Source: an uncultured Chthonomonadales bacterium
GTDB taxonomy: Bacteria > Armatimonadota > Chthonomonadetes > Chthonomonadales > CAJBBX01
Assembly: GCA_964526545.1 (NCBI GenBank)
Contig: CAZGLN010000002.1
Location: 1-37,188, forward strand
Reading direction: 5' to 3'
Length of the DNA stretch: 37,188 nt
Positions 8,108 through 31,280 of the stretch are shown piece after piece. The number at the start of each line of letters is the position of its first letter. Position 1 is the first letter of the stretch. The translations under genes were made by a program, and so were the position numbers. The notes beneath the pieces are model-generated. The model was not told where the DNA came from and did not search any database. It saw nothing but the letters and a program-made list of their open reading frames with translations.

Positions 8108-8114
8108 GACCAGC

Positions 8115-8137: not shown

Positions 8138-8253
8138 GTTGCAACATCCGACCGCATGGGTACCACGAATGTCCGCCGGGACTGTGTGATGGAAGCCCCT
8201 CATCGAGACCAGCCTTGCGGCACAGACGGCGGACCGCCGTGCCATCCCGCTGC

Positions 8254-9183: not shown

Positions 9184-12100
9184 TTACCTCACCAGCAGAA
9201 TCTGCTGGGTCGCGGTGGCTACGTTGCCCTGATCATCGGTTGCCTTCAGTCTCAGGATGTAGCTGCCCGCTGGCATGGCAATTCCGGCCGCGTTCCGGCC
9301 ATCCCATAGCACGGTATTCGATCCGGCGGAAGCCGAACGGCCCTGGCTCACGGTCCGGATAGTCTGACCATTGTTGCCCACGATGTCCGCCGTTACCACG
9401 GCCTCATGCGAGAGTCCGTAGGTTACCGAGACACCGCCAGCAGACCGCGTCGCCGTCCTCACGTTGGTGATCACCAGCCGGCTGTTGAGAGCGGCCCGGC
9501 CGATGGTCAGCGCGAAGCGCCTCGGCGCGGTGTTCTCGCCCGTGTTGTAGGTGAGACCAGCGCCATTGGCCAGCGACCTGCGGCTGTTATTGCTCAGGTC
9601 CACGATGCTGACGCTGTACCGCCGGCCCAGCGTGCTGATGTTCGGGAACTGCAGCGATACATCCGCATTCTGCTGGTCGGTGGTTACCTCGAACACCACC
9701 AGTGACCCGGCAGGCACCGCCCTCGTCTCCGCCGGAAGCTGCACGGCATCCGGGTCAACGAACCGTACGGAGACGAAGTTCGCAAGGTACGGCGGCTTGA
9801 TCAGCTCCGCCATGCGGGTCTTGGCCGAGCCATCCAGCGGTACGAAGTTGTCCGTATCCATGCGGTCACCCATGCGGGCTACCACCTGGAGGGCATTGGA
9901 CCGGAAGTCGGCCGCCCTGCCCACCTCCACGCCACGGGTACCCGGCGTGGGCAGGATCAGCTCACACGCGGTGGTGGCGAAGAACCAGTAGGCCCTGCCA
10001 GGGATCAGTGTGTCACTGGCCTGCACCAGCTGGTAGCTCCGTGTCGCCCGGTTGTAGGTCCAGGCGAACGGCCTCACCGGACTGGCCGCGTTGGTGATGT
10101 TGACCGCCGCGCCTCCGGCCCTGGCCTGCAGCGCGCTGAAGTTGATAGGCTGCTGGAAGACGGAGCCCACCATGTTCCAGCCCGCGCCCAGGTTCACAGC
10201 GAACGGCTGCGTGGCATCCCACACGCGGCCTCTCGGATTAATCCGCAGAGCCGTGCGCGGGAATACCCAGTAACCCCTGCCCGCGAGGACCTGGAACGAA
10301 GGATCGCCAGCCCTCGGCGAGTTGAGGAAGTAGTAGTCGCCGGAGCCCCGCAGAGTCGGTGAGTAGGCCACCAGATCCAGCTCGGTCACGCTCACCGGCA
10401 CCCCGGCGGTCGTGGTCGGGCTGAAGGTGATGCCCGGATCCGGCGTGGTCGGGATGAGCGGCGAGGAGATCATGTCGGGCTCTTGCACAGGCAGATCCAC
10501 CGAGAAGCCGCGCACCTTGAACGGGAAGCGCGCCGAGACCGAGTCGTACACGCCAGCCACGCCGGCCCACTCCAGCACAAGCTGCCAATCGCCAGTCTGG
10601 TCCAGCCGGGCCGCGGAGGTGTAGGCGAACGTGCCATCCGCGTTGAAGGCGAAGGACTCCGTGAAGCCGCTGCCGTCGGGCTTCACGAACTGCGCCCTCA
10701 CCGTGCGGTTGCCCGCCGCGATCGGCGTATTCGTATCCACCTTTCCGGCGAAGGCATAGGGTGCGTCCGCCGTGCCATCGGCCAGAGGCGCTGGCGTGGT
10801 GGTGATGATGGTCGTGTTGAGAGTCGGCCCCACAAGCTGGCCGCCGCCCACCGGGAACTGGCCTACATAGTTCGGAGAGAGCGTATCAATCGCTTCGAAC
10901 CGGTAGGTGTGGTCCCTCCTCGTCTCGTCGCGGGCGAACCGGTAGGTTACCGAATAGCGCACGCCGTTTACGAAGTCGGTGCCAGGCTCGTCCTTGGTGA
11001 GCTGCAGGGTAACACGCTTCGCCGGATCCGCCTCATCTATGATCACGCGTACCACCGACGGCGGCGTGCCATCCGCGTTCTTGTAGATGATGGAGTAGCG
11101 GAAGTCCGTGGACTGCGGGCCGGATACCGGAGTGAGCGTGCCGATGGGCGCCGGAGGAGCAATGAGCTCCAGGATAGACCGCACCGTCAGGCCCGTGATC
11201 TCTCCGGTGGTGATGAACCGCGCCTGATCCGCAACGCCGCCGAGATTGTCCTCGGCCTCGAAGTGGAATGTGCGGATGCCCGGAGTGAGCACCACTGCGG
11301 CACTCTCGAATACCGCGCCGCCAGGTGTGTTTGGAGCGCCGCTCCGCAGTGTCATCGGGATCGTCGGGTTCGCAGGGTCATTGGTGACCACGCGCACCGC
11401 GGAGACCGGCGTAGTGTTGGAGTCCGTGTCTTTGTAGATCACGCGGAACACGAACCGATCGCCCTGGAGTCCCACGAGGGCGGGCTGCAGAGCTCCGTTG
11501 ACCACGTTCGGCGCGGAGCCCGGTCCGTTCGCCTCGAGGTAGGCCGTGCCGCTCTCCAGGCTTGGCGGATGGTTCACGTAAGGCCCGGTGTACTTGGTGC
11601 CGTCCGCACGCAGGGTTTTCAGCGTGGCGTTATCGGCCGCCTCTATCAGGTAGGTGTGCTGACCTGATCCGAGCTGGGCGCCGGAGGCCTGGAACGTATA
11701 CAGAACACCGTTCTCGATGTCGGCCGGGGTTGGGTTCGCCGGCGTGGTGGCCACCATGTCGAACGTGTTCTGGAGGACGGCGCCGGCCGCGTCATACACC
11801 TTCACCTGGATGCGCACCGGGAAGGTGCCATCCGCGTGGCGGTACCTTGCGGCGAAGGTGTAGTTGGCGTTGAACGGCCCCTGGAGCGGTGTCAGCGTGC
11901 CCTGGTTCGGCTGGTTCACGTCCGGCGGATCCAGCTCCGGAATGCTGAACACTGCGAGACCGGTGATCTCACCCGTGGCCGGGAACCGAGCGGTATCGAG
12001 CACCGTGTCAGCGGGCACGTCGTTCGGAGCCGGCCGCGACTTGTCGTTCGCGTCGAAGTGGAAGGTCTTCGGTCCCTTGGTGAGCTGCAGCGGTGCGCTC

Positions 12101-15100
12101 TCGTAGATTGCCCCGGCCGGGTCGGCGGGATTGCCGCTCACCAGAGTCATCGCGATGGGACCCGGGTTATTGGGATCGTTCGTCGAGACCGTCACGGTAC
12201 CGGTGGGCGTCCGCGCCGCATCGGTGTCCTTATAGGTCACTCGGAAGATGTACCGATCCACCACGGTTCCATCCAGCGGCGGGTTCAGCGCGCCGTTCAC
12301 CACCGTCGGGGCGGAGCCGGCGCCACGCGCCTGGATATACACCGTGCCATTCTCAAGCGTCGGCGGGTTATTGACGTACGGCCCGTTGAAGCGGCCGGCC
12401 GCGGGCAGGTTCACGGGACCGGATACCTGATCCTCCGCCGTGAAGCTGTAGGTGTAGGCCCCCGGCGTGAACTCGTTGGGTGTGGTGGTGTAGGTGAAGG
12501 TAACACCCGCCACATAGTCGGCACCCGTCTGTACCAGTTGCGGCGGCGATACGGTCTTCACAAGGCTGCCGCCGGCATCGAATATCCGCAGCTGCATCAC
12601 CGTGGGCGGCACGCCCTGCGGATGCTTGTAGATCACCGTGTAGGTGAAAGTATCCGTCCTCCGGCCGATGGTGGCGGAGAGCGTGCCATCGTTCACGCCG
12701 GTGCCGGGCGTGGGCGCCTCGAGGACCGGCGGCTGGCCCGCCTCGATGGTGAGAGCGCCCGGGAATTCCAGCTTCACGCCCCTCCGCTCAAGCGGCAGGT
12801 CGTTCACATCCCAGGGCTCACCCAGCACCGCACCGCTGTTGAAGTCGTCACGCGCGGTGAAGAGTACATCCCGCACGCCAGGAACATGCCCATCCGGCAG
12901 GTTGCGCACCGCCACCGTCCACTGGAAGACCTGACCCAGCTTGATGGCGTCGGCGGTCGGCGCCGGGAACCGCGGGAACTGGTTCGTATCGGCCGGGTTG
13001 GGCACCAGGGTGGCGGGCGCCGGCGTCGTTACTTCCACATAGTTTCCGGCAATGTTCTTCACCCAGAGCTTAATGCGCGGGGCGCCGGTTACCGGATCCA
13101 CCGGCGGATCGCCGTTCAGGTCCGTGTATTTCACGCGGAACGTTACCAGGCCGCCCCGGCTGGCGGGGTTCGGGTCAACCACCGCGAGCGGCGCATCCGG
13201 TGCGGAGAGCGCCGGCGGCTTGTTCACGGTGAGGTTGATGCCCGTCACCTGGTCCGGATTGTCCTGGAAGCCGTAGCCTATCGCGTTAAGGCCGTACTCC
13301 AGCCGGGCCGGGTCGCCCACGTTATCCACACCCGCATAGCCCTCGGCCTTCAGCACCAGGCGGTACCGCACGCCGGTGGCGTAGTTCGGCGGGTTATCAA
13401 TCAGGTTCATCACGGCCTTGTGCTGCGTGCCGCTCGGACCCGTGTAGCGAATCTCGATCGGCTTGCTCGGCGGCTGATTCGCGTCGTTCTGATAGGTGAT
13501 GGTGAACTCGTAAAGCTGGTTGCTCAGGCCCTTCGGGAAGGGCACGATGTTGGAGCCGCTCAGCGCTCCGAGCTCAATCACGTTCGGGCCGGGCAGCTCA
13601 TACGGACCCGGCTCGGGGGCAGGCAGGGGATAGCGACCCACATCCGCACCGCCATCCGTCGCCTCGAAGTGGTAGCTATGGTTGCCCAGACCGAGCTGCG
13701 CACCCGTCCGCGTCAGGATGTACTTCACGGGCGACCGGTAGTCCACCGGCACGGGCGTGTTCGGGTCGCGCGTCATCTTCAGCCGCGTGGCGTTATTGTC
13801 GAGCGAGAGCATGACGCCCTCGGTTCCATCATCCGCCACGGGCGCCTGATTGTCGGCATCCTGATAGAAGATGGCGAACTCGAAGTTCTGGGTCAGTCCT
13901 CCCTGCAGCGGGACGCAGGTGAGGAAGTTGTTCTGCTGAATGCCGCCCGGCGGAGGCGTGAGGACCGGCACGTTGTTGGCCCGCACCACGGGTCCCACGG
14001 TCTCCTGGTACCGATACGAAATGCGCACCAGCGCGTTCGGCCCGGGGTCCGTGGTGAGCTGCAGCCTGCCGTTCGGTCCATCCACCTGGTAGTCGCCCGC
14101 GGGCGGATCCGCCGGATTGTAGGAGAGCAGCGTCGTGGTGCCGTTGGCAACCACCCACACAAACATCGTGGTGTTGCCGGGCGTGTTCAGCTCCCAGTTG
14201 CGCGTACCGTTCGGGTCGTCGTACAGGCCGGCTCCAATGCGCCGCAGGGTGCGCCACGTGTTCAGCGCGTCCGAGCTGGACCCATCACCCACGGTCACCA
14301 GCCCGACATCCGGGATCTTGCCGTCGTTGGTGACGAACCGCACGCGGTACTCCTGCCCGACCGGGGGCAGGCTGAACCGCAGCGGTGCCGGCAGGTGGTA
14401 CTGCTCGCCAACCACGTAGTTCGGTGTTCCGCCGCTCACGCGCACCAGCGTGTGGCCATTGTCATTGGAGACCCTGGCGTTCGTTGCCACATCGTACAGC
14501 TCGACGAAGGCCTTCAGGGTTCCTGGCGGCTCACTGTCGGCATCCTTATAGGTTACGAAGATGTCGAACCGCGTCGCCGTGTTGAACGCTTGATCGCTGG
14601 ACTGGATACCGACATTCGTGAGCACCGGCGACCGGTTCTCGATGATTGTCGGCCCCTCAATCACCCCGCTCGGGTTGCCGTTGTCATCGCCCTGCGGCAG
14701 GGTCACCCACTCCCCGTATTCCCGGCGGATGGGCGCTCCCGGAGCCCAGTTATCGCGGAACTGGAAGTAGAAGCTGTGCTTCTTCGTGAGGTTCGCCGGC
14801 AGCTGGGTGAGCACGAACCGATAGCGCACCCCCTGACTGGTGGGCCGCCCGATGTCAGCCGGATCCAGCTCCATGCGGTAGCGGTGATTCACCGGGTCGT
14901 TATCAATGATGACCCAGGCATCCAGCGGCAGGTCGTTATCCGCGTCGCGGTAGGTTACCGTGTACGTGTAGGCCTGGCCCTCTACTCCGGAGACCGGAGA
15001 CACCGAGCCATTGCTCAGCACCGGACGCGAGTTGACATGGGGCTCCGCCACGTAGTTCTTGCCGACCGTGCCCGTGCCGAAGAGCACCAGCTCGCTCCGG

Positions 15101-17034
15101 TTCGGCAGACTCGCGCCCTGCGAATCCTCGAAGCGCCCGAACGGGTCGTGCGTGGAGAGCGGCCGACGCGGCCAGATGGCGCGGTTTCTGCCATCGTCCG
15201 CCTCGAAGTAGTAGACCTTTCGGCCCTCCTGCCCGGCGGGGAACTGCGCATCGTAGTAGTAGACCACGCCGTTGGCGTAGTTCAGGGCACCCTGGTTCGG
15301 CTCCACCTGCATGGTGTAAGGCTGCATGGTGCCATTGGCGGGGCCCATCCAGAGGCGAACGGTGATGGGGCCTGGATTGCCGCCAGGGAGCTGGTGGGTA
15401 ACGCGCACCTGGAAGCGCACGCGGGTCTTGGTGGTCACGCGCGATCGGCGGGCGTTGGAGGCCACGCTGTTGGCGCCGGAATAGGGCGGCGCGACCTCGC
15501 CGGTGTATGTCGGCGAGAACTGCAGCGGCCGGTTCTCGGGCAGGTCATCCGTCCAGTGGCCGTCCGTCAGGATGGGCGTTACGAAAGGATGCCTGTACTG
15601 GAACTGCGGATCCGTGCGGCCCGGATAGCCCATCGGGTCGTCGGAATCGGCCAGCTGGCGGTACAGATCTGGCGAGCGCGCCTCGCGGTCTTCGTAGGAG
15701 CCCACGGGCAGCGTGTTCACGTTCGCCGATGTCAGCACCGTGTTGTTGGTCGCCACGGCGCGGTGGTTGCCCTGGGCAGGCGCATTATCCCCATCCAGGT
15801 CCGGTCGAAAGTCAATGGAAGCGATGTAGTAGTAGGAGTACTGGCCCGCCCGCCCGGCCACCTGGGTGTAGAACGGCATGGGCGGAGGCGGCATGAAGGG
15901 CGCGAACAGCCAGATGGAATCCAGCCGCGCGAAGGCCGCGTACACATTCGAGTGCGGCCTGCCGGTAACTATCCCTCCGATGGTGTTGCCGGTTACATTC
16001 GAGGGCAGGCCGTCCGGCACGGTGAACTGCGGCGGCATGCTCTGGAGGTCTCCGCCGAAGGGCGCCGGCGTGTACTGCGTGGGCATGACCTGGTAGCGGT
16101 AGAACACGCCGGAGGTGTAAGCCGAATTCGCCACAGGCTGCACCACCAGCGGATTGGACTGGACCGTTAGGTAGGTATTCGCGTTGTTCACCGCCTGCCC
16201 GGGCTCAATCTCCATCGGGCAGCGGAGCACTTCGCCGCCGGGCGCGGTAAGAACCAGAAGGACGCCGGACTTTATCTCCGGCAGTCTGGCCGGATCCTTC
16301 AGGTTGTTCCAGTCTGTGTAGCGCGTATCCCAGATGGTGGGCGGCATACCGCTCCGCGTGGTTACCTTTACGCGCCAGGTGAAAATATGCGCGCCGCCGC
16401 CATCGTTCGGCGAAGTGGAGTCTTCAGGGTTCACCCGAAGCCCATTGCCGTTCTGCCCGACCCCAGGGGCCTTATCGTCCGCTCCGGTTGGAGTCACCGG
16501 CATTATCATGATTGCCGGCTCGAGAGTATCGGTGTAGACGCGCGAGGGGTGCACCGAGACCGAGCCAGCCGGGGACGGAGAGCCAGTGCTCGAGACATTG
16601 CCGGAGCCATCATTTTCCCTAGCAAAGATGGTCCACGTGGAGTTGCGAGGCACACCCGCACCGTTCGCGCCGATGGTTCCACCCGCAATCTGGATGCCGC
16701 GGATATAGGCGACCCAGGAGTTGGCGGGCCGGCCCGGGCTGAAGTCGCGCTGCATGTTGACGGCGAAGCGACTGCTCGTCGGCGGGCTGGCGGTATCCGG
16801 ATCTATCCAGACCTGCGGCTGACCCACGAGAAAGCTTGTGTCCGCGGATGGAGCAACCTGCGCACGGAAGATAAACCAGGTGCGCTCCGTGCCCATTGCG
16901 CCCGCATCACCGGTCCGAACGGCAAGGATCTCCGGGTTGCTGATGGTAGGCGCGGCCAGACCCGACTGGATCGAAAGCGCGAAAACGAAAGCCAAACCAA
17001 GGGCATATCGCAGCGCGCTGATCGAGCGTTTCAT
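9184..17034 (-). CDS. Giant secreted protein (2,616 aa): signal peptide, about 11-13 tandem beta-sandwich repeats, and the shared C-terminal cassette ending in a FlgD-Ig-like domain
   Basis: GAGGGGAGAG SD. Signal peptide MKRSISALRYALGLAFVFALSIQSGLAAP. Recurrent ~105-130-aa units carry the signature F.F.V.Y.D.D...PP ... M ... G(V).Y ... H.Y.F.A.D. The C-terminus reads ...GWNMVGSVF...GRAYWFF...NTVLWDGRNAAGIAMPAGSYILRLKATDDQGNVATATQQILLVR. Confidence 0.9.
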   Translation of the reverse strand: MKRSISALRYALGLAFVFALSIQSGLAAPTISNPEILAVRTGDAGAMGTERTWFIFRAQVAPSADTSFLVGQPQVWIDPDTASPPTSSRFAVNMQRDFSPGRPANSWVAYIRGIQIAGGTIGANGAGVPRNSTWTIFARENDGSGNVSSTGSPSPAGSVSVHPSRVYTDTLEPAIMIMPVTPTGADDKAPGVGQNGNGLRVNPEDSTSPNDGGGAHIFTWRVKVTTRSGMPPTIWDTRYTDWNNLKDPARLPEIKSGVLLVLTAPGGEVLRCPMEIEPGQAVNNANTYLTVQSNPLVVQPVANSAYTSGVFYRYQVMPTQYTPAPFGGDLQSMPPQFTVPDGLPSNVTGNTIGGIVTGRPHSNVYAAFARLDSIWLFAPFMPPPPMPFYTQVAGRAGQYSYYYIASIDFRPDLDGDNAPAQGNHRAVATNNTVLTSANVNTLPVGSYEDREARSPDLYRQLADSDDPMGYPGRTDPQFQYRHPFVTPILTDGHWTDDLPENRPLQFSPTYTGEVAPPYSGANSVASNARRSRVTTKTRVRFQVRVTHQLPGGNPGPITVRLWMGPANGTMQPYTMQVEPNQGALNYANGVVYYYDAQFPAGQEGRKVYYFEADDGRNRAIWPRRPLSTHDPFGRFEDSQGASLPNRSELVLFGTGTVGKNYVAEPHVNSRPVLSNGSVSPVSGVEGQAYTYTVTYRDADNDLPLDAWVIIDNDPVNHRYRMELDPADIGRPTSQGVRYRFVLTQLPANLTKKHSFYFQFRDNWAPGAPIRREYGEWVTLPQGDDNGNPSGVIEGPTIIENRSPVLTNVGIQSSDQAFNTATRFDIFVTYKDADSEPPGTLKAFVELYDVATNARVSNDNGHTLVRVSGGTPNYVVGEQYHLPAPLRFSLPPVGQEYRVRFVTNDGKIPDVGLVTVGDGSSSDALNTWRTLRRIGAGLYDDPNGTRNWELNTPGNTTMFVWVVANGTTTLLSYNPADPPAGDYQVDGPNGRLQLTTDPGPNALVRISYRYQETVGPVVRANNVPVLTPPPGGIQQNNFLTCVPLQGGLTQNFEFAIFYQDADNQAPVADDGTEGVMLSLDNNATRLKMTRDPNTPVPVDYRSPVKYILTRTGAQLGLGNHSYHFEATDGGADVGRYPLPAPEPGPYELPGPNVIELGALSGSNIVPFPKGLSNQLYEFTITYQNDANQPPSKPIEIRYTGPSGTQHKAVMNLIDNPPNYATGVRYRLVLKAEGYAGVDNVGDPARLEYGLNAIGYGFQDNPDQVTGINLTVNKPPALSAPDAPLAVVDPNPASRGGLVTFRVKYTDLNGDPPVDPVTGAPRIKLWVKNIAGNYVEVTTPAPATLVPNPADTNQFPRFPAPTADAIKLGQVFQWTVAVRNLPDGHVPGVRDVLFTARDDFNSGAVLGEPWDVNDLPLERRGVKLEFPGALTIEAGQPPVLEAPTPGTGVNDGTLSATIGRRTDTFTYTVIYKHPQGVPPTVMQLRIFDAGGSLVKTVSPPQLVQTGADYVAGVTFTYTTTPNEFTPGAYTYSFTAEDQVSGPVNLPAAGRFNGPYVNNPPTLENGTVYIQARGAGSAPTVVNGALNPPLDGTVVDRYIFRVTYKDTDAARTPTGTVTVSTNDPNNPGPIAMTLVSGNPADPAGAIYESAPLQLTKGPKTFHFDANDKSRPAPNDVPADTVLDTARFPATGEITGLAVFSIPELDPPDVNQPNQGTLTPLQGPFNANYTFAARYRHADGTFPVRIQVKVYDAAGAVLQNTFDMVATTPANPTPADIENGVLYTFQASGAQLGSGQHTYLIEAADNATLKTLRADGTKYTGPYVNHPPSLESGTAYLEANGPGSAPNVVNGALQPALVGLQGDRFVFRVIYKDTDSNTTPVSAVRVVTNDPANPTIPMTLRSGAPNTPGGAVFESAAVVLTPGIRTFHFEAEDNLGGVADQARFITTGEITGLTVRSILELIAPPAPIGTLTPVSGPQSTDFRYSIIYKNADGTPPSVVRVIIDEADPAKRVTLQLTKDEPGTDFVNGVRYSVTYRFARDETRRDHTYRFEAIDTLSPNYVGQFPVGGGQLVGPTLNTTIITTTPAPLADGTADAPYAFAGKVDTNTPIAAGNRTVRAQFVKPDGSGFTESFAFNADGTFAYTSAARLDQTGDWQLVLEWAGVAGVYDSVSARFPFKVRGFSVDLPVQEPDMISSPLIPTTPDPGITFSPTTTAGVPVSVTELDLVAYSPTLRGSGDYYFLNSPRAGDPSFQVLAGRGYWVFPRTALRINPRGRVWDATQPFAVNLGAGWNMVGSVFQQPINFSALQARAGGAAVNITNAASPVRPFAWTYNRATRSYQLVQASDTLIPGRAYWFFATTACELILPTPGTRGVEVGRAADFRSNALQVVARMGDRMDTDNFVPLDGSAKTRMAELIKPPYLANFVSVRFVDPDAVQLPAETRAVPAGSLVVFEVTTDQQNADVSLQFPNISTLGRRYSVSIVDLSNNSRRSLANGAGLTYNTGENTAPRRFALTIGRAALNSRLVITNVRTATRSAGGVSVTYGLSHEAVVTADIVGNNGQTIRTVSQGRSASAGSNTVLWDGRNAAGIAMPAGSYILRLKATDDQGNVATATQQILLVR
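10816..12366 (-). repeat. Internal tandem duplication of a two-domain (~250-266 aa) unit inside the giant gene
   Basis: Unit 1 is aa 1557-1822 (nt 11569-12366), starting PPTLENGTVYIQARGAGSAPTVVNGAL. Unit 2 is aa 1823 to about 2073 (nt 10816-11568), starting PPSLESGTAYLEANGPGSAPNVVNGAL. By eye, roughly half the positions are identical over the first ~110 aa. Confidence 0.7.
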
Positions 17035-17212
17035 GCAGTCTCTCCCCTCAATCCCCTCTAGATCGCGCGAAACTCCTCCGCCGATCCCGCCTCAGGCCGC
17101 AGTTCAGTATCCACTTCGGCCCCTGCTTGTGTAGGCACCCGCGGCCTTCGCCGCCGGCCCTTGTGTCCCGGGGGATGGGACGTCGGATAATCTTGCTAAG
17201 TCCTCTATCCAC

Positions 17213-17245
17213 GCGGGGGCGGGATTCAAACGCCTCCCGCCCCGC
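17213..17245 (-). terminator. GC-rich hairpin (11 bp plus one bulge) 14 nt downstream of the ~883-aa gene stop
   Basis: GCGGGG(G)CGGGA-N10-TCCCGCCCCGC. No U-tract. Confidence 0.35.
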
Positions 17246-17258
17246 TATGAGCTCAATG

Positions 17259-19910: not shown

Positions 19911-20095
19911 CGATAGAACCCCTCCCTGGCGGTCCGCAGGCGGCCTGCTTCGCCGATATCGCGGCTTTGCCCGCACCCCCACTGCGCGCCCATGTAGCAA
20001 CGCCAAACATGCGCTGCGACTGGGGATGCCTGCTACTTACCCGTCCGCCCCTTTCTCAGGGCGCAAAACACCCGGCGGACCGGACGCTCTTTTCA

Positions 20096-20126
20096 CCGGG
20101 GGCGCTCTACATTCCTGCGCCCCCGG
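20096..20126 (-). terminator. Perfect 10-bp GC hairpin about 58 nt downstream of the S8 protease stop
   Basis: CCGGGGGCGC-N11-GCGCCCCCGG. No U-tract on the minus strand. Confidence 0.35.
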
Positions 20127-20183
20127 CACCTTCGTTGGTCACCCGGCCATCCAACACCGAGCACTAAGCGTTGGCTGTCCGGC

Positions 20184-23100
20184 CTATCTCGTGAACGTAA
20201 ACGGCCGCACAACGCGGGCAACATCACCCTCGGAACCCACTGCCCTGATCTGTATCAAGTAGGTTCCTGCGGGCACCTTGCGGCCGCCTCCATCCGCGCC
20301 CGTCCAGACCAGCCTCACATCGCCCGCCGAGGCGGATCGCGACGCCAATGTGGCTATCGGCGCGCCAGCCGCGTTCAGCACCTGCACTTCGTAGGTTACG
20401 GCGTCGCCGCTCAGCGTGAAGCCGACGAGCGCTGTTCCCTCGGACCTGCCGGTGCCACCAGAGCGAATGCTCACGTTGGTGATTCGCAGAACGTCACCTA
20501 CCGCGGACTTCGCCGTGATGGTGAAGCGGCGTGTGGTGGCCTCATCAGAGCTCTTGAACGTAATGGATCCGCGCGACCGCATGTCGAGCGTCTGGCCCGT
20601 GGTCTCATCCTTGATGGTGAGCCGCACGCTCTTGGGCACCCCCGCGATGCCGTTCCATCTAACCGTCACGTCGGTGTTCGGCAGGTCGGTAGACGCAACA
20701 ACCGTCCAGCTCTTGGTACCCGTGCCGCCCCGAATGTCCTGGGCATAGAGGCCGCTGAGCGCTCCCCAACTGTCGTTGACCACGCCGACAGAGACGTACG
20801 GCGACATCGTGGGCGGCTTCGCCACGTCGCGCAGGTCGAAAGAGTCCGATGCGCGACTGCTCATGCCGATGAAGTTCTGCGTGTCGCTGATGCCCCTGGC
20901 CGTAGCCTCCAGGCGCAAGAACCAGCCGCCCTTCTCCACCGAAGGCGTTACGGCGCGGCTCTCGGCAGCCCGCGTGCGGGATGGCGGCACCACCAGGGCG
21001 ATATCCGGCTTGCCTGGTCCAACCGCCAGCCAGTGCCCGGTCCAGGCACGCAGAGCGCCATCCGGCAGGGTCCGGAACGTGTAGCCGTTCTGGCTGTCGA
21101 AGCTGTAGATGTTCGGCAGCAGATAGCCCTTGTCCACAGCAATCTTCACGGAGAGCCGGCCCTCGGGCGTATCCACGAGGCAGGAATTGAACGGAACATC
21201 GAACGGGAAAGGACAACCCACCATGTTCCACCCGATGGATTGGCCGCCCGGCGCCGCCTGAAGCGGGATGATGAAGGGCCTCGAGGTCAGAGGCTGACCG
21301 CGGGTAACCACCGGCTTCACGCTCTCGGTATCCGCGAAGAAGGCAAGGCCTACGGGTCCGCGCAGGAAGCCGCTTGTCGCCGGATCACCATCCTGCCGCA
21401 CGGCCACCCCTGTCTTGTCGAAGGAGGCTCCATCCTCCTTGGCGCCGGTGGAAGCGTAGAAGGCATAGCGCCCGGTAGCCGTCGACCGGCCATTCGCAAT
21501 GCCCACCGTGTCATACACCCAGCGCGCCAGTCGGAAGTCCGTGCCGAAGTAGCCCTCCGGCGTCGCGCCGTTCTCAAAGTAGGGTATGGCGATCATGGAG
21601 CGTCCGGCGGGGATCTGGCGCGGCGTGATAGTGAAGAACCGGATATCAGTTACCGTCTTACCGGCCTTTGTTCCGCTGACTTCGATGGTGTGCGGTCCGG
21701 GCGAAAGCAGCCGCGTGCGCACCACCGCGTCATAGTTCAGCGGCACATCATTGCCCTGCTGGTCGCGGATGCTCGCCGTGATGTTCTCGATCACGTAGTC
21801 CGTAATGACCGTTCCATCCAGCTTGAAGACGAAGTCCGCGGGCGGAACCTGGCGCACGGCTACGCGCAGGGTCGGCATCAGGGTCTCAACGGGATCAGGA
21901 AGCCTGCCGCCACCACCGCCGGCCTTTCCGCCAGTGCCGTCCGGTTCCATCACGGTCACCGAGACAGCCACCTTCTCGAGCGCGGCCGCGGCGTCCACGA
22001 TGCCGTATCCGTACTCCGGGCTCGGCACGCGGAAGCCGCTCACCGGCCTGGCTGTGCTGGTGAGCACATCCTTCACGTCACCCGGGGAGACTCCGGGAAT
22101 CGAGAGCAGAAGCGCCACGACACCCGCCACCTGCGGGCTGGCCATCGAGGTGCCTTCCTGGAACCCGTACGACCCCGCCGCGACGGGAAAAGTGCTCAGG
22201 ATGGTCGTACCTACCGTGCTGTCGCCTCCAGGCGCGGCCACGGTGGAGTAGGGACGGAACTGCGAATAGACGGCCCTCAGCCCTGTTTGACCCGTCGCGG
22301 TGACGCAGAGAATATTCCGATGCGCGGAGGCCATGTTGGCGGGGTTGAAGGGTGGGTTGCCTCCGGCGCCGTCATTGCCGGCACCGCAGACGATGACGAT
22401 GCCCGCGTTTGCAAGCGCGAGGAGCTTGGCGTTTTCCGGATCTGCAAGGTTCGGCGTGTCGGAGGCATCGGCCGCACCCAGGCTCAAGTTCATCACTACC
22501 TGGCGGGTCGGGTTGTTCGTCTTGTGCGCCAGGACGAAATCATAGGCGGCGATAAGTGCCGCGGAGGAGAATCCGCCCACGCCGTTATCGGCATTGATGG
22601 CAAGCAGGCGTGTATTATCCCAGGCCACGCCAGCAACGCCTATCCCGTTATTGGCCTGCGCCATGGCGATGCCGGCGACATGCGTTCCGTGCGTTTCGGT
22701 GTTCGGCACGGGCCGCGGATCGTTCGTCCCGCTCACCGAGTTAAAGCCAGGCAGCGTTCGTCCCTGAAACTCCGGATGGTCCACGTCGGTGCCGTTATCC
22801 ACCACGGCGATAGTAACGTGCGACTGCCCCTTCTCAATCGCCCATGCCTGCGGCATGCGCATCTGGATGTGGCCCCACTGCTCGCCGAACCGCGGGTCAT
22901 TCGGCACCGCGGTACCGGACTGCAGCTTGTACTTCAGGCTGTTGTGGTGGGCGAAGAGCACCCGACCGTCGGCCCGCAGCTGCGCCAGCAACGCGGTCGT
23001 CTGCTCCGCGGTCGGGTTCGCCGCGTTCATGCGCAGATGGTAGACGTCCCGCGCTCCCTGCCCGTCAATGTTGGGAAACGCCTGCCGGACTTGCAGGTTG

Positions 23101-23282
23101 TAGGCTGCGGCAATCTGATCAACAGCCGCCCGGGCGGTCCCGCCCGGCACGGTGATCAGCACCTCGCCGTTAACGAAGGCCGGCCGAACCACCTGCTGCG
23201 CCGATGCGCCCGGATAGCCCAGAACGCTCAGCACCGCGGCGAGCCCCAGCGCGCGAACAGCTATTTGAAGCCACTTGTGCAT
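20184..23282 (-). CDS. Secreted S8 (subtilisin-family) serine protease with an I9-like propeptide and the shared C-terminal cassette
   Basis: GAGAGGAG SD, with GTG at 23285 and ATG at 23282 in tandem. Signal peptide MHKWLQIAVRALGLAAVLSVLGYPGASAQ. Catalytic motifs: AVVDNGTDVDHPEF (Asp), HGTHVAGI (His), GTSMASPQVAG (Ser). The C-terminus reads ...GWNMVGCPFPF...TGHWLAV...ASDSFDLRDVAKPP...DVRLVWTGADGGGRKVPAGTYLIQIRAVGSEGDVARVVRPFTFTR. Confidence 0.9.
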   Translation of the reverse strand: MHKWLQIAVRALGLAAVLSVLGYPGASAQQVVRPAFVNGEVLITVPGGTARAAVDQIAAAYNLQVRQAFPNIDGQGARDVYHLRMNAANPTAEQTTALLAQLRADGRVLFAHHNSLKYKLQSGTAVPNDPRFGEQWGHIQMRMPQAWAIEKGQSHVTIAVVDNGTDVDHPEFQGRTLPGFNSVSGTNDPRPVPNTETHGTHVAGIAMAQANNGIGVAGVAWDNTRLLAINADNGVGGFSSAALIAAYDFVLAHKTNNPTRQVVMNLSLGAADASDTPNLADPENAKLLALANAGIVIVCGAGNDGAGGNPPFNPANMASAHRNILCVTATGQTGLRAVYSQFRPYSTVAAPGGDSTVGTTILSTFPVAAGSYGFQEGTSMASPQVAGVVALLLSIPGVSPGDVKDVLTSTARPVSGFRVPSPEYGYGIVDAAAALEKVAVSVTVMEPDGTGGKAGGGGGRLPDPVETLMPTLRVAVRQVPPADFVFKLDGTVITDYVIENITASIRDQQGNDVPLNYDAVVRTRLLSPGPHTIEVSGTKAGKTVTDIRFFTITPRQIPAGRSMIAIPYFENGATPEGYFGTDFRLARWVYDTVGIANGRSTATGRYAFYASTGAKEDGASFDKTGVAVRQDGDPATSGFLRGPVGLAFFADTESVKPVVTRGQPLTSRPFIIPLQAAPGGQSIGWNMVGCPFPFDVPFNSCLVDTPEGRLSVKIAVDKGYLLPNIYSFDSQNGYTFRTLPDGALRAWTGHWLAVGPGKPDIALVVPPSRTRAAESRAVTPSVEKGGWFLRLEATARGISDTQNFIGMSSRASDSFDLRDVAKPPTMSPYVSVGVVNDSWGALSGLYAQDIRGGTGTKSWTVVASTDLPNTDVTVRWNGIAGVPKSVRLTIKDETTGQTLDMRSRGSITFKSSDEATTRRFTITAKSAVGDVLRITNVSIRSGGTGRSEGTALVGFTLSGDAVTYEVQVLNAAGAPIATLASRSASAGDVRLVWTGADGGGRKVPAGTYLIQIRAVGSEGDVARVVRPFTFTR

Positions 23283-23308
23283 CACGTGAACTCCTCTCTC
23301 ACCGACCT

Positions 23309-23335
23309 CCCGCGGGCCATCTTCCGGCCCGCGGG
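23309..23335 (-). terminator. Perfect 10-bp GC hairpin in the 71-nt gap between the 638-aa gene and the S8 protease gene
   Basis: CCCGCGGGCC-N7-GGCCCGCGGG, lying between the stop at 23357 and the SD/start at about 23285. Too close to the next start to leave room for a promoter, so it more likely acts as an attenuator or processing/stability element. Confidence 0.35.
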
Positions 23336-23356
23336 GCTACGCCGAATATCCGCAAG

Positions 23357-25273
23357 CTAGGGCGGTGGCGGCGGCGCGTCGGCCGGCTGGAAGCTCCTGG
23401 GCTGGGAATAGACGAACCGGAAGGCCATGTCGCCGGACTTAGCGTTGCGAGTCATCGCATCCACGGGCCCTGGCCTATCCTGGCGATTGCGTGCGCCAAC
23501 CCTCCAGAAGATGGTCGGCCGGATTGCGCCTGCCGCGCCGTCCTCCCAGTTTCTGAAGGCCGCATCCCGTCGAAGTACGGGATTGTTGCTCAGGTTCACG
23601 ACCGTATCGAGCCGCTGCTGCACGCCGTTCGGCGGCGGCGAGGCGAACTGCTTGAGCGGCAGCTGCAGGATGAGCTGCTTGTTGCGGAACGTGCCGTCGG
23701 TGGAGACCTCCACCTGGTACTCATCCGCGCCCGTGGTCGAAAGCCACCGTGGATCAAACCGCGTGATGTCAATAGAGCCCACGCCGTCCGCCGGGCTGGC
23801 CAACTGCACGGGATTGACGGGCGTTACCGGGCCGGAGGGCACGGGATCGGTGCCGACATCCTCAAAGGTAACACCCTGGTTGCCGCCCTGGTTGTTGTTG
23901 TTGTTGTTGATGAACTGCCTCTGGATGACGGCGGAGAGCAGATAGCGGTAGGTAAGCCCCGTAACGAATCCCCGAGGGGTATCGGCATCCGCGGGATCGG
24001 GCGTTACCACCGTTGAGAGGCCGCCCTGGTTGTTGTTGTTATCACCCGTATTCCGCGGCGGCTGATGGAAACTTCGCCCGCCGCCCCAGAAGGTGGATGG
24101 CGCAGGATGGTCGGTGTAGGTCCGCTGACCGCCGTTCAGCGCGGCCACCGGCGTGCCGGTGAGGTTATACGGCGCGTCGCGGTCTCGCCATACCTGGTAC
24201 TCGAACGTGCCGGCCCCCCAGATGTTGTCTCTCCAGGTAAGCCGAACCGCCGCGGCGCCCAGATCCTGATCTGCCTCCGCAGTCACGTTTGTAACGGAGG
24301 AGCTGCTGCCCCCGCCGACGGCAGTGGCAATCGCGGCGCCGATCACAAGAACCGTCAAGATCTTGCCCAGGCTGTTCATTCCCGATTTCGCGCTCGTCCG
24401 CGTCGGCTGCGTGCCCACGCCAGCGCCCGCCGGGAACGGCGGCATTGGGAAGACCGCCCGCAGCTTGTCCTCGATGCGCACGCCCAGCGGATCGCTGATG
24501 ATGCGCGCCTCGGACATCGCCGGAAACACCTGCGTGAGCTCGATCTCGGCGACTCGCTGGCGATCGCGCGTAGCGATCAGCCGCATGCCCGGCTGCATGC
24601 CATCGCGCGATCCTCTATTGACCACCACCTGCACGTTCGGCTTGGTGCCGATGGTGCCGATGACCGCGGCGCTGGGCAGCGTGTAGCTGAGAATCTGCTT
24701 TACAGACTGCACGGCGGCATTCTGCGCAGCTTCCTGGATGAGCTGATCCTCGTCCGCAAGGCCTGGCCTGGCGCGCGCCACTCCGACCTGCGACGCGCCG
24801 TTCAGCAGGTCACCCGTGGCGCCTTCAATCACGCGCACGCGAAGGCCCACCTGGACCTCCTTGGCGGCGCCCTTCGGCGCGGTTACCCTCACGAAGGCAA
24901 TCTCGCCCGTGATCACCGTATTGATGTTGAGCGCCGCACTCAACCGGCTGATCGCTACACTGTCAAACGGCGGCCGAAGGAGATTCTTGCGGATCTCCGC
25001 CTCCACCGTCTGCTCTGGCAGCGGCGTGAACTTGCCCGATGCGGAGAGCTCATTCGATACCTGGTCGGTTGCCAGCTTCGCGAGCGCTGCACCGAGGTTG
25101 CCGGCCTTGTTCTCAAACCGGAGCACGGCGACGTCCTGCGCGACGCCCGTGCCCGTGCCCTGCGCCGTGGCGAGCGTGGGCCGGAACGCACCGGCGGCAA
25201 TCGTCGTGATCATGGCGAAAGTAAGCAGCCAGCTTACGAGCCGGGCCGCCCTGCTCTTTCTGATCCGCTTCAC
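23357..25273 (-). CDS. Membrane protein (638 aa): CsgG/LpoB/TolB-N-like domain, small beta-barrel-like domain, central hydrophobic helix, two FN3-like domains with poly-Asn linkers, and a poly-Pro C-terminus
   Basis: GTG start with GGGAGGA SD. N-terminal signal/anchor LVSWLLTFAMITTIAAGAF..ATAQG. Domain pattern: VAVLRFENKAGN...LATDQVSNELSASGKFTPL...LNINTVITGEIAFVRV...VGLRVRVIEGATGDLL. Central hydrophobic segment ILTVLVIGAAIATAVGG. FN3-like segments: AVRLTWRD...FEYQVWRD and ADEYQVEVSTDGTF. Ends ADAPPPPP. Confidence 0.8.
   Translation of the reverse strand: MKRIRKSRAARLVSWLLTFAMITTIAAGAFRPTLATAQGTGTGVAQDVAVLRFENKAGNLGAALAKLATDQVSNELSASGKFTPLPEQTVEAEIRKNLLRPPFDSVAISRLSAALNINTVITGEIAFVRVTAPKGAAKEVQVGLRVRVIEGATGDLLNGASQVGVARARPGLADEDQLIQEAAQNAAVQSVKQILSYTLPSAAVIGTIGTKPNVQVVVNRGSRDGMQPGMRLIATRDRQRVAEIELTQVFPAMSEARIISDPLGVRIEDKLRAVFPMPPFPAGAGVGTQPTRTSAKSGMNSLGKILTVLVIGAAIATAVGGGSSSSVTNVTAEADQDLGAAAVRLTWRDNIWGAGTFEYQVWRDRDAPYNLTGTPVAALNGGQRTYTDHPAPSTFWGGGRSFHQPPRNTGDNNNNQGGLSTVVTPDPADADTPRGFVTGLTYRYLLSAVIQRQFINNNNNNQGGNQGVTFEDVGTDPVPSGPVTPVNPVQLASPADGVGSIDITRFDPRWLSTTGADEYQVEVSTDGTFRNKQLILQLPLKQFASPPPNGVQQRLDTVVNLSNNPVLRRDAAFRNWEDGAAGAIRPTIFWRVGARNRQDRPGPVDAMTRNAKSGDMAFRFVYSQPRSFQPADAPPPPP
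23891..23908 (-). repeat. (GTT)6 microsatellite on the plus strand, encoding Asn6; a second (GTT)4 lies at 24029-24040
   Basis: The motifs read directly as gttgttgttgttgttgtt and gttgttgttgtt. Both are preceded by gccgccctg, giving NNNN(NN)QGG in the protein. Confidence 0.9.
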
Positions 25274-25434
25274 TCTGATAGTTCCTCCCTCGATGACGTT
25301 CGCCTTACACCGGAACCGGAACGTACCGGGCGGGTTATCGAACGCTGAACAGATCTGCGGTTCCGTCTCGACTACGTGCTAGGAGGCAGAGCGCACGTCC
25401 TCCTCCTCGCCGGACCGTCTACCGCATGGAGGCA

Positions 25435-25463
25435 GGGCGAGCCCGTCACCGATTAGCTCGCCC
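25435..25463 (-). terminator. 8-bp GC hairpin 19 nt downstream of the first large gene of the locus
   Basis: GGGCGAGC-N13-GCTCGCCC. No U-tract. Confidence 0.3.
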
Positions 25464-25481
25464 CGCACACCAACGAACGCA

Positions 25482-28400
25482 CTACCTCACTATCAACACC
25501 TGACCGGCTGCACGCGCGGTCTGCGAACCATCCGCGGATCTGGCCTCGATGATCACCGCGTAGGATCCCGCGGGCACCACGATGCCCTGATCGTTCTTCT
25601 GGTCCCACGTCTGCTCATGGATTCCCGCCGCGCGGGTGCTTCCGGAAGAGAGATTCCGAACGGTCGTGCCATTCGCGCTTATCACCGTCAGCTTCACCGA
25701 GGCACTGCCGGAGAGCGCATACGATATCGTCGTGGATTGCGCGCTGCGGCCCGTCCGCGTGGAGACCTGACTCACGATCAGCCTGTCGTTCGTCTGCGCA
25801 CCCACCTCTATTCGGAAGCGCCTCGTGGTCTCCCCCTCGCCAGTTACCCACGTGTATCCACCCGAGCTGCGCATATCTCTCCGCTCGCCCGTAGCGAGAT
25901 CCACAAACGTCAGGCGCACGTTTCGCCGCACCGCCGCGGTATTCGGCCAGGAGATGGAGGCCGACGCCTTCTCCACGTTGGTGCGCACGCTGAACTCGTA
26001 CACCTTCTGCCCTGGTGCGGCCGATCGCACATCCACCGCGTAGGCGCCGGCACGGTCGCCCCAGTTCGGATTATCGAAAGCGCCGTAGACATACTTCTCA
26101 CCGAACAGCGGCGGCTTCTCGGCCTTGAAGGCATCGAATCCATCGCTTGCTCGCGAGCTCTGGCCGAAGTGGTTATCATCATCCCGCACTCCGCCCACGG
26201 CCACGCGCAAGTTCACCGTCCAGCCGTCGCCTCCCTGCAGAATTGCACGGCTGTTCGCCGCAGGGAGAGTTGCCGATCTTCTGCTGGTTATCGGATCCAC
26301 GAGAAGCGTTACCGCCTCGTAGGCCCGCACCCAGTAACCTCGCCAGGGCTGCAGCCGGAAGTCGAGCACGTAGCTGCCGCTCACATACCCGAAGATGGCC
26401 GCGCCGACCTTCCCCTGTGTAACCGCTTGCTGGTAGGTGAGCAGCGTGCCGTTGGCCAGCCGCACCCCCACGCGGGTCCAGTCTATCTCGAACGGGAACG
26501 GATTGCCGATCATGTTCCAGCCCGGATTCAGCCCGATGTCAAACGGCCGGGTCTGATCCGCCAGGATTCCCTCCGTGGCCAGCGGGAGGTTGTTGCGATA
26601 GGCAAGCCAGTAGCCCTGTCCCAAGCGGAAGGTTGTCGTGGGTGCCTGCGGATAGAAGCTGTACTGCCGCAGCAGCCACGTGGCGAACAGGAACGCGCCG
26701 TTGGTTCGGTCCGCCGCCGGGATGCCAAGCAGATCGCCCACGTTCTGGTTCGGATAGTCGTACGGCGCCGAGACAAGCGACAGATTGCCCGAGAACGTGT
26801 GCAGCGGCTGCATGGAGAAGTTGACGTTCTTGGTCTCCTGCTGGCTGACCACGGCTGCCGTTCTGTTCAGCGGCGTGGGCGTGTAGCCCGCCAGTGCGGC
26901 AGTTACGGTGTATGTCACCCCGGCCGGCACGTCCGTCAGCCGCCAGTTGTAGGTGTAGCCCGTGCCATCCGTGATTGCCGGCGTGAAGGTATTCATGCTT
27001 GCAATCAGGTTATTGGCAGCATCCCGTATCTGCACCAGGACTCCCGCGAGCGGCTGGTTGTTTGCGGAGTTCGTTACCAGGCCGGAGACCACGCCAGGCG
27101 GTATCGCCCGCAGGCGTATCGGGTTCGGATCCGGCTCGGAGTTCTGCCCCGTGACGATGGTCAACGTGGATGGAGGGCTGTTCGGCGAGCGGCCGGGCGC
27201 CGTGGCCACTACCGACCAGGTCCCCGGATCCAGCCCGTTCGGCGGCGTGTTATTGCTGTTGAAGGAGAAGTTGCCCGTGGCATCCGTGATGGCAGTAACC
27301 GTCTGGCCGCCCAGAGTCGCGGTGACCACTGCACCGGCAATGCCCTCGGCGGGGCTCTCGTCCTTCACCACGCGGCCCGTGGCGCTTCCGGGTTCCGGCT
27401 TCATCCGGAAATCGAAACCGGTATACGTCTTCGCCGCTACCACGAGCTGATCACGCTGGCCCGCGTTCGGATCGTTCGGATTCGGCACGGGGTAGTTGAG
27501 CGGTGTGCTCTCACCGAACGACGGCGCGGTGCAGGTGAGCGTGTAACGCGTTCCCGCCGGCACGCGGTCCAGCGAATAGTTGCCCTGCACGTCGGAGGTA
27601 GCCGTGATGACGACAGGGGTTACCCCAGGACCAACCACCTCGGTCAAGGTGAGCGTGGCACCCACCACCGGCGTGGTGCCATCCATCCGTGTCACTTTGC
27701 CGCGCACCACTGCGGGCTCGGCAGCCGTCATGCGGATATCCACACGATCCCGGGCATGCCCATGCACGACGACGGCGGTTGGACGCCCAACAAGGAAGCC
27801 CGCTCTGGTCGCCGACACCTCGTAGGTGCCAGCCTCCACGCCATTGATGAAGAAGTTGCCGGAGGCATCGGTAAGCGCGGTGTACCGCACGGCGTTCGGC
27901 GTGGGATAGTTATCAATGAGCCGCACCAGCACATCCTTGAGCGGCGTGCCGGCTCCCTCCAGGTCGCGCACGTTGCCGATGACCTGCCCGGTGCGCATCC
28001 AGCAGAGGGCGTTGTGCACCAGGGAAGTGCGCCGGCTCTTCATGATGACCGTGCTATCCACCGTGAAGCCCTGCGGCACGTAGCCCTCGAGACCCATCGG
28101 CGCGTAGACCACGCGGGCGTTGGTGGTGGTGTCCTCGTAGTGGAGCACTCCGGTAAGGCCGTTGGCAAAGTTGAAATCCGCCACGGCGCCGCTCAGCGGC
28201 ACCACCATGTCCGGCCACATGTTGCCGGGGCAGCCATAGGTCCGGTCTTCGTTCGGCGCCGGCAGACCGCCCGAGAGGCGGTTCTCCGGATTGTAGATGA
28301 AGTCCTCGATGCTCGGCGGCACCGGCGGGCCGGGATAGTTGTGGTGCGAGACGATGCGCGTCTTGCGCCACGGGTCGTTTACGATGGGATTGTAGGAGCC

Positions 28401-31179: not shown

Positions 31180-31280
31180 GACGGATCTTACCTCCTAGAG
31201 AGCGCGCTACTTATGGGGGAAGTAAGTCTCACCGGGGACGGCCAGACAGATGCCGGCCTGGATCCGCCCTGCCGGCGGGG

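Follow-up and report, generated by a model that had tools for sequence, protein, structure and literature searches.

Why should a run of adjacent genes that encode otherwise different, very large secreted proteins give them one and the same multi-domain C-terminal tail? The question is posed by positions 1 to 37,188 of contig CAZGLN010000002.1 (assembly GCA_964526545.1) from an uncultured Chthonomonadales bacterium of the phylum Armatimonadota; this whole stretch of 37,188 nucleotides (nt), with a G+C content of 65%, is referred to as the window. Four of its proteins, here called A, B, C and E/F (the last read as two open reading frames (ORFs), E and F), end in a tail, the cassette, in which two domains that we name D1 and D2 precede a terminal domain of the FlgD immunoglobulin (Ig)-like type, the C-terminal domain (CTD); their genes lie in one operon with those of three further proteins, D, H and G. 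The initial annotation had taken the tail for a targeting, anchoring or assembly module rather than a catalytic part. It is indeed multi-domain and non-catalytic and sits in an outer-membrane-type context, but in the Armatimonadota loci sampled it is not a general tag, and the sorting function is one that we infer. We favour, with a confidence that falls a little short of even, a reading in which the subunits of a single envelope complex share this tail as their module for sorting to, or attachment at, the outer membrane.

The tails of A, B, C and E match one another in BLASTP comparisons, with E-values that range from 1e-17 (A against C) to 4e-46 (B against E) over pairwise alignments of 364–503 residues at 23–34% identity; the tail of A is matched by the other three at 1e-17 to 1e-38. 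These values, together with the 23k-member family described below, exclude chance similarity, and the homology of the four tails that had been claimed at the outset is borne out. It also survives a proper alignment, since in MAFFT alignments all of the landmarks previously listed are present, from the G.GYW motif to LRITNV and the FlgD-Ig end, and the similarity even extends further upstream. The tails lie at the ends originally given, but the 332–353 amino acids (aa) assigned to them were too few: the homologous C-terminal region spans ~430–477 aa, with a conserved block h-h-S-x-P-Y/F as its upstream edge. Sec signal peptides, as read from the translations, begin A, B, C and F. In front of the cassette, E/F carries its signal peptide, a TolB-like propeller region and four CarboxypepD_reg domains (Pfam; TolB match), and C carries a protease domain (Pfam Peptidase_S8, 1.9e-39, besides FlgD_ig). 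In NCBIfam this protease domain matches the type VII secretion system mycosin model TIGR03921 (E 4.5e-33; 114.8 bits, under the cut-off of 278.75) and the dentilisin PrtP model NF033595 (E 1.7e-22; 79.8 bits, under the cut-off of 300).

All four ends score above the gathering threshold of 27 bits for the Pfam family FlgD_ig (PF13860; 44.1, 47.5, 48.7 and 45.0 bits), with the match on the last ~75 aa, in agreement with the FlgD-Ig-like end first proposed, and a search of PDB sequences with the terminal domain returned the FlgD structures 7eh9 and 7bhq (E ~1e-6). A flagellar FlgD function was nevertheless ruled out: here the domain is terminal and fused to secreted enzymes, and there is neither a FlgD N-terminal domain nor a flagellar context. 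Type IX secretion system (T9SS) CTDs are Ig-like C-terminal signals of ~80–100 aa, and signals of this type are regarded as a hallmark of type IX secretion in the Bacteroidota or the wider Fibrobacteres–Chlorobi–Bacteroidetes (FCB) group. When a CTD profile built from 162 Armatimonadota sequences was compared using hhalign with six CTDs annotated as PF18962 (from WOR-3, Marinimicrobia and unnamed metagenome proteins, called Por_Secre_tail by Pfam), the two aligned globally over 82 columns with a probability of 98.2% (E 2e-13), and their C-termini coincided, with Arg placed over Lys/Arg. This profile evidence makes the terminal domain a homologue of type-A T9SS CTDs, and the 'sorting' part of the tail is therefore of a known kind.

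Further likenesses to type-A CTDs are found in the extreme C-terminal position, the length of ~85–90 aa, the Ig-like sandwich (AlphaFold2 predicts a beta sandwich for the domain), the final basic residue and the bearers, which are large Sec-exported enzymes and adhesin-like proteins. The differences are equally specific. The window ends pass FlgD_ig but fail both PF18962 (Pfam, E ≤ 10, four 90-aa ends) and TIGR04183 (NCBIfam, E ≤ 1); their nearest related Pfam match is CHU_C, at E 0.25 and for one end of four, and in NCBIfam the C-termini of PorU and PorZ are weakly matched (E 8e-4 to 0.06). The window-type end is a near-invariant Arg preceded by (R/Q)-P-h-x-h-x, in the loci read the Armatimonadota CTD always follows D1-D2 and lies in one operon, where T9SS CTDs are carried by tens of unrelated cargo proteins, and the hosts belong to a phylum that is not known to have a T9SS. 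Of the 189 cassette proteins whose C-terminus is complete, 172 (91%) have Arg as their final residue; the segment that follows D2 is mostly 84–97 aa long, and the consensus of the end reads R-(A/V)-V-(R)-P-(L/V/F)-(V/I/L)-(L/V/I)-(T/V)-R-COOH. Because the last residue is near-invariant, the alignment suggests that it is the free C-terminus that is recognised.

The distribution of the cassette was followed using a profile scan (4-sequence alignment) of one genome per GTDB species, from which the best 78 of 403 confirmed stretches were taken; ~5 to ±10 kb around the matches was read in each genome, 1.3 Mb altogether, and the six-frame ORFs of these loci were searched with our own hidden Markov models (HMMs) of D1, D2 and CTD and with the window's other proteins. 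The carriers are no random set: in this synteny and HMM scan they proved to be paralogous members of one conserved operon. Seventy-one of the 78 loci come from Armatimonadota, or from unclassified metagenome-assembled genomes (MAGs), and have the Armatimonadota-type operon; the other seven belong to WOR-3 (two), Stahlbacteria, Latescibacterota, Marinimicrobia and Aerophobetes (one each) and an unclassified MAG (locus L072). Of those among the 71 whose length allows a judgement, most show the gene order E/F-D-C-B-(A)-H-G, and the operon spreads over Chthonomonadales (closest, 57% identity), Fimbriimonadales, Armatimonadia, Capsulimonadales, Abditibacteriales and Zipacnadia. Orthologues keep to characteristic sizes: 1,800–2,000 aa for E/F (as a single ORF), ~600 for D, ~1,000 for C, ~900 for B, ~230 for H and ~650 for G. 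Co-occurrence of the cassette genes with those for a putative outer-membrane barrel and CsgG/LpoB-like proteins, which the initial annotation had thought worth checking, therefore holds across the phylum. Two diverged copies of the operon (loci L008 and L024, with E tails at 53% and 36% to the window profile) were seen in the Chthonomonadales MAG JBBRKX01, and the Chthonomonas-type loci L031–L033, L057 and L063 represent a more distant operon type, so that some genomes may hold two paralogous systems.

Within this operon the tails have long been separate. The best cross-genome match of a tail is its own orthologue in 51/51 cases for E, 53/54 for C and 48/48 for B, and the median identity between paralogous tails of one locus is 32%; judged from these comparisons, the triplication of the tail is older than the radiation of the Armatimonadota, and recent exchange is not in evidence. 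Recent shuffling of the cassette, or gene conversion among the four genes, was rejected on the same grounds. The CTD HMM matched 187 ORFs in the 1.3 Mb of loci, 185 of which also contain D2; the two that do not are Por_Secre_tail proteins of WOR-3 and Marinimicrobia MAGs. In the sampled loci the Armatimonadota cassette is thus a fixed unit, carried only by three to four genes of this operon and not scattered over unrelated cargo.

These data bear on a first alternative, namely that the four proteins are ordinary T9SS cargo, with the CTD read by a standard T9SS whose genes lie elsewhere in the genome and D1-D2, duplicated within the operon, as a mere spacer or stalk in front of that signal. We consider this unlikely. 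It would agree with the global alignment of the CTD profile to PF18962-type CTDs and the coincidence of the basic ends, with the placing, in FCB-type phyla such as Latescibacterota and Marinimicrobia and in unnamed metagenome proteins, of D1-D2, or D1, directly before Por_Secre_tail or FlgD_ig domains, and with the label 'hemin binding protein' on the sole structural relative of D1 (A0A8D9C8P8; see below). It sits poorly with the absence of any CTD without D1-D2, or outside the operon, in the Armatimonadota loci and with the failure of the window CTDs to match PF18962 or TIGR04183. Nothing T9SS-like was found among the operon genes themselves, NCBIfam searches included. The T9SS has moreover been described as confined to Bacteroidota (PMC11611037), our literature search returned no paper that ties Armatimonadota to a T9SS and none relevant on FlgD, and the secretion genes given for the Fimbriimonas genome are those of type II secretion, type IV-related secretion, twin-arginine translocation (Tat) and Sec only (PMC4072686). 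The initial annotation had cautioned that the tail might reduce to a type-A CTD, with the last ~80 aa alone conserved; the end is homologous, as that caution supposed, but in the regions inspected the whole ~430-aa tail is conserved.

What, then, are the parts in front of the CTD? The plan of the tail is D1 (~175 aa), a disordered linker, D2 (~150 aa) and the terminal FlgD-Ig domain of ~88 aa. For the final 445 aa of E, AlphaFold2 produced from a 16-sequence alignment a model with a mean predicted local distance difference test score (pLDDT) of 87.6 and a predicted template modelling score (pTM) of 0.73, which contains three domains and one disordered segment (residues 181–196, pLDDT below 50). 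D1, which carries both GYW motifs and GWNMIGNPF, reaches a pLDDT of 95.6 and a pTM of 0.89 when modelled alone. Compared using hhalign, its two halves align (probability 93.5%, E 2e-7), and D1 is therefore an internal duplication of a ~85-aa unit, h-h-S/G-x-P-F/Y ... W..Y ... G-x-G-Y-W; in the copy found in C the first half holds an insertion. That the blocks now resolved as D1 and D2 lie outside any named family was correctly foreseen: they match nothing in Pfam at E ≤ 10 save for one chance-level match, nothing upstream of the CTD matches NCBIfam at E ≤ 1, its C-terminal sorting-domain models included, and a phmmer search of the PDB with the tail found FlgD for the CTD alone and no match for D1-D2. 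Foldseek comparison of the D1 model with the PDB gave nothing significant (best E 0.29, template modelling (TM) score < 0.3), and in BFVD there was one true match and nothing else: A0A8D9C8P8 (E 2.4e-5, TMq 0.64), a 587-aa 'putative hemin binding protein' on a contig labelled 'uncultured marine phage'. That name is often transferred from the T9SS cargo HBP35, so that the contig may belong to a bacterium and not to a virus. With no fold match in the PDB, D1 may represent a new fold.

The linker between D1 and D2 has a median length of 23 aa and is rich in Ala, Gly, Ser, Thr, Arg and Pro. An Arg-Ser dipeptide occurs in 113 of 182 distinct linkers, where 500 composition-preserving shuffles averaged 43 and never exceeded 59; the linker sequences are related, so that this count does not translate into a probability. 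The dipeptide is kept across class-level divergence. D2 is recognised by the motifs DN.fG, A.DGFD, EKPP, WG..G.Y..DVR, VTLSWP, L.D..TG and TRRF.I, and as modelled it is an Ig/FN3-like sandwich; a Foldseek search of the PDB with the whole-tail model found generic FN3/Ig tandems, the best of them the Vpr fibril 8jmw (E 3e-7, TM < 0.25), which is uninformative. No kinship was detected using hhalign between D2 and the CTD, between the first half of D1 and the CTD, or between the second half of D1 and D2, and the idea of D2 as a duplicated CTD was accordingly rejected.

Outside the operon, D1 and D2 belong to a large family. A D1-D2 profile without the CTD, run against 1.84 billion representative proteins (50% identity clusters), found 23,194 proteins at E ≤ 1e-3, of which 10,436 stay within 1e-10 and 2,928 within 1e-30, and the top matches fall into the size classes of the operon orthogroups. 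Other architectures also occur. The 27 proteins of the type D1-D2-D1 that were examined (530–3,872 aa) have neither CTD nor terminal Arg, end 0–6 residues past the second D1 and usually hold a Cys in the last strand; examples lie within P0037–P0159 (P0075, 3,250 aa; P0113, 3,872 aa) and at 5641–7770 of locus L072. D1-only proteins combine D1 with a multihaem cytochrome and CarboxypepD_reg, with caspase-like peptidase_C14 or with chitobiase-associated CHB_HEX_C domains, among other partners; in P0009 (439 aa) and P0012 (308 aa) D1 is the extreme C-terminal domain, and in P0172 and P0174 ~130 residues follow it. Proteins with D1 and CTD and no D2 exist as well, and in WOR-3, Latescibacterota and Marinimicrobia D1-D2 stands behind PQQ propellers and CarboxypepD_reg, behind beta-helix/FN3/BACON or behind LamG domains. 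Since D1 and D2 recur in other arrangements and in other phyla, they look like general tail-building domains and not like one indivisible signal; as far as these architectures tell, they are building blocks of the ends of large secreted proteins that often, though not always, precede a T9SS-type CTD. The D1-only proteins hint that D1 alone is a terminal anchoring or binding module.

The same observations feed a second alternative, in which the tail is purely structural and serves in binding or oligomerisation: the pseudo-two-fold D1 would bind a glycan (lipopolysaccharide or exopolysaccharide) or co-assemble E/F, C and B, with D2 and the FlgD-Ig domain as ordinary Ig spacers. The extreme C-terminal position of D1 in many CTD-less proteins, both D1-D2-D1 and D1-only, is in keeping with such a role, and three anciently diverged, non-exchanged tails per operon would suit a fixed hetero-oligomer. 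D1 further has invariant aromatic and Asn positions, W101, N102, Y150 and W163, that resemble sugar-binding-site residues, but these may be mere core residues, and neither Pfam nor the Foldseek comparison of D1 with the PDB revealed similarity to a carbohydrate-binding module or lectin. The near-invariant terminal Arg and the fixed 84–97-aa end argue instead for recognition of the C-terminus, and we regard a purely structural tail as doubtful.

If the tail is an address, the co-encoded proteins G, H and D are the most economical candidates for its reader. The probable start of G is at ~nt 8089, because the orthologue P0190 is 664 aa long. G consists of a signal peptide, a Big_1/invasin Ig domain, a weakly LptA/LptD_N-like jellyroll and a ~400-aa beta-rich C-terminal part. 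Single-sequence PDB searches with G and with D were empty, and orthologue profiles alone gave matches: for G these were invasin (2.5e-13) and, weakly, LptA (2r19, 0.0016) and LptD (7omm, 0.0062), and in Pfam its orthologues match Big_1 in 7/7 cases and LptD_N in 1/7 (E 0.086). All complete G orthologues end in Phe or Tyr, like an outer-membrane beta-signal, and the sequence features together make G a putative outer-membrane barrel. A search for homologues of G returned unnamed Chthonomonadales proteins only; no LptD barrel family was matched (Pfam, NCBIfam, PDB profile), nor any similarity to PorP/SprF detected (NCBIfam, Pfam), and NCBIfam named no T9SS, Bam, Lpt or other system for G, H, D or F.

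H has a signal peptide, a domain of the LpoB/CsgG/LptE/PelC fold and a C-terminal hydrophobic anchor; its orthologues match LpoB in 3/9 cases (4e-4) and also CsgG, LptE and FlgT_M in Pfam, and its profile matches PelC in the PDB (5t11, 8e-4). Protein D, whose gene always lies between those of E/F and C, comprises a signal peptide, a CsgG/LpoB/TolB_N/LptE-fold domain, a TsaP/MreC-like beta domain, a central hydrophobic helix and an FN3-like region with Asn/Gln-rich low-complexity runs (NNNNQGG), and the C-terminus ...F-x-x-x-E-L-P-P-x-P is kept in most orthologues. Its Pfam matches (n = 14) are to CsgG in 8 (best 2.8e-7), LpoB in 5 and MreC in 5, with TolB_N and LptE also found, and its PDB profile match is to TsaP (3jc8, 4.5e-4). 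Related folds elsewhere act as the plug of a barrel (LptE) or form periplasmic or outer-membrane rings (CsgG, PelC, FlgT, TsaP), and the combination of G, H and D is suggestive of an outer-membrane assembly context.

G and H may even be a divergent barrel–plug pair of the LptD/LptE kind, if their weak profile matches are followed. The likeness lies in the weakly LptA/LptD_N-like segment of G, which is followed by a beta-rich part with an aromatic end, and in the LptE/LpoB/CsgG/PelC fold class that H and D share, with H always adjoining G. Unlike LptD, G has an extra invasin-type Big_1 domain, no LptD barrel match and E-values of just 0.0016–0.0062, and H and D carry hydrophobic helices instead of lipoboxes. 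By analogy, the placing of a dedicated outer-membrane protein gene beside the genes of giant CTD proteins also recalls SprB/SprF (PorP/SprF), but the CTD there is of type B and here of type A/FlgD-like, and G is not PorP/SprF-like.

A third alternative arises from these partners: the operon might encode a periplasmic or outer-membrane-biogenesis complex, LptDE-linked or Tol-Pal-like, whose subunits dock through their tails on G and never reach the surface. The TolB-like propeller and CarboxypepD_reg domains of E/F fit such a complex, as do the LptE/TolB_N/LpoB-like nature of D and H, the LptA/LptD_N-like segment of G, the core-like, phylum-conserved character of the operon and the use of FlgD-Ig in FlgD, the flagellar rod/hook assembly protein; in Bacteroidota, the periplasmic protein PorE joins a TolB, a carboxypeptidase-regulatory and a Pal domain (PMC12204202). 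Yet a 2,616-aa protein such as A, which the initial annotation described as a repeat giant, and a subtilase whose orthologue at locus L002 has a pro-domain-like N-terminus, are typical of the surface or the extracellular space, secretion CTDs are the nearest kin of the end domain, and every LptD/LptE signal is weak. We judge this explanation very unlikely.

The favoured reading, that of a shared outer-membrane sorting or attachment module, would work as follows. Once exported by Sec, the proteins would be recognised at the outer membrane through their terminal Ig domain and its free C-terminal Arg, most economically by the co-encoded G, H or D. In the attachment complex of P. gingivalis, PorU and PorZ retain their CTDs, which dock on the outer-membrane barrels PorV and PorQ; the terminal domain here may likewise stay bound, so that the protease C, the propeller protein E/F, B and sometimes A would be displayed jointly as one surface complex. 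D1-D2 would then be a stalk or docking platform, and processing, perhaps by the subtilase of the same operon, might take place at the Arg-Ser linker. Several observations weigh against this proposal. The window CTDs stay below both PF18962 and TIGR04183 at the thresholds given above; CTD-less proteins contain these domains too, as D1-D2-D1 or as D1 alone, and there D1 and D2 must have a function independent of CTD-type sorting; and the operon encodes neither an energy source nor a known secretion motor. The LptD-like signal of G is borderline (E 0.0016–0.0062) and lies in its jellyroll part alone, its barrel being inferred. Finally, the inspected flanks cover only ~5 kb per genome, and CTD-only cargo may be present elsewhere.

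A bolder version, which we think distinctly unlikely, would make the operon a self-contained, hitherto unrecognised outer-membrane export and attachment system, in which T9SS-type CTDs, their terminal Arg being obligatory, are handled by the LptD-like G in place of SprA/PorV, with H and D as LptE/CsgG/PelC-fold ring or plug proteins at its side. The D1-D2-CTD tail would be the signal and anchor dedicated to it, and the S8 protease would be a PorU-like processor acting at the Arg-Ser linker. Were it true, it would be an alternative or ancestral form of CTD-dependent surface display outside the FCB superphylum.

The kind of end domain, T9SS-type or FlgD-Ig, was already known. New are a very large D1-D2 family without annotation, whose D1 may be a new fold; a variant of the T9SS-type CTD, found outside the FCB group, that ends in a near-invariant Arg; and a phylum-conserved Armatimonadota operon in which three to four tailed proteins are coupled with an outer-membrane protein, putatively LptD-like, and with proteins of the CsgG/LptE fold. 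A T9SS-type end domain is thereby placed in another phylum, fused to two undescribed domains and within a conserved operon. If the tail is recognised by G, H or D, this would be a new way to display large enzymes on a diderm surface and would bear on the evolution of T9SS cargo recognition. Independently of this, family models for D1 and D2 would better annotate thousands of giant metagenomic surface proteins.

Positions of the operon genes and of the four cassettes in the window; cassettes were delimited with our own D1/D2 HMMs, for A together with phmmer
Feature	Position (nt)	Strand	Remarks
Gene G	6095-8245	minus	putative outer-membrane protein; last operon gene; ends ...SRF
Gene H	8254-9018	minus	254 aa; always directly upstream of G
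Protein A gene	9184-17034	minus	2,616 aa; only Pfam call FlgD_ig
Cassette A	9187-10476	minus	own D1/D2 HMMs and phmmer
Cassette A parts	D1 9949-10476, D2 9451-9894, CTD 9187-9447	minus	ends ...LLVR; FlgD_ig 2e-11
Protein B gene	17259-20006	minus	883 aa, counted from Met at ORF residue 33
Cassette B	17262-18563	minus	own D1/D2 HMMs
Cassette B parts	D1 18048-18563, D2 17529-17990, CTD 17262-17519	minus	ends ...VVTR
Protein C gene	20184-23285	minus	1,033 aa; S8 subtilase
Cassette C	20187-21617	minus	own D1/D2 HMMs
Cassette C parts	D1 20982-21617, D2 20463-20927, CTD 20187-20453	minus	ends ...TFTR
Protein D gene	23357-25273	minus	638 aa; without cassette
Gene E/F	25482-31179	minus	~1,900 aa; ORF E 25482-28886, ORF F 28420-31179
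Cassette E/F	25485-26804	minus	own D1/D2 HMMs; CTD ends ...LIVR
Cassette E/F parts	D1 26292-26804, disordered R/S/A-rich linker ~26226-26291, D2 25755-26225, CTD 25485-25748	minus	

The gene of E/F is broken in the window by one frameshift at ~nt 28852–28859, which makes two overlapping ORFs. Residues 1–756 of the 1,883-aa orthologue at locus L004 correspond in tblastn to 31179–28852 in frame -1, and residues 758–1882 to 28859–25485 in frame -2; in the Logan assembly SRR16693997, an identical protein D is adjacent to an intact E/F product of 1,900 aa. What had been described as a split protein of ~1,899 aa is therefore one gene with a single frameshift, its length of ~1,900 aa having been correctly given, and in view of the intact product and of the single-ORF orthologues the break is probably an assembly or sequencing error, or else a strain-specific pseudogene.

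Upstream of the operon, ~950 nt (31180–32136) hold no convincing gene on the operon strand and match no Rfam family, and rpsA follows at 32137–33570 on the minus strand. A plus-strand ORF at 31291–32892 looks spurious, because it overlaps rpsA on the opposite strand and has no Pfam match. The only RNA gene found in the window by Rfam and tRNA scans is a tRNA-Leu (CAA) at 33831–33915. Just downstream of the operon, a minus-strand ORF (4594–5466) encodes 290 aa that are mostly Gly/Ser-rich repeats (GGGSRSFGGGSSFG...), with a Tyr/Trp/Pro-rich C-terminal part, a terminal hydrophobic helix and no Pfam match. The plus-strand ORF at 1517–3277 encodes a beta-class carbonic anhydrase (Pro_CA, E 4e-29) with zinc ribbons at both ends (Zn_ribbon_TFIIB, DZR).

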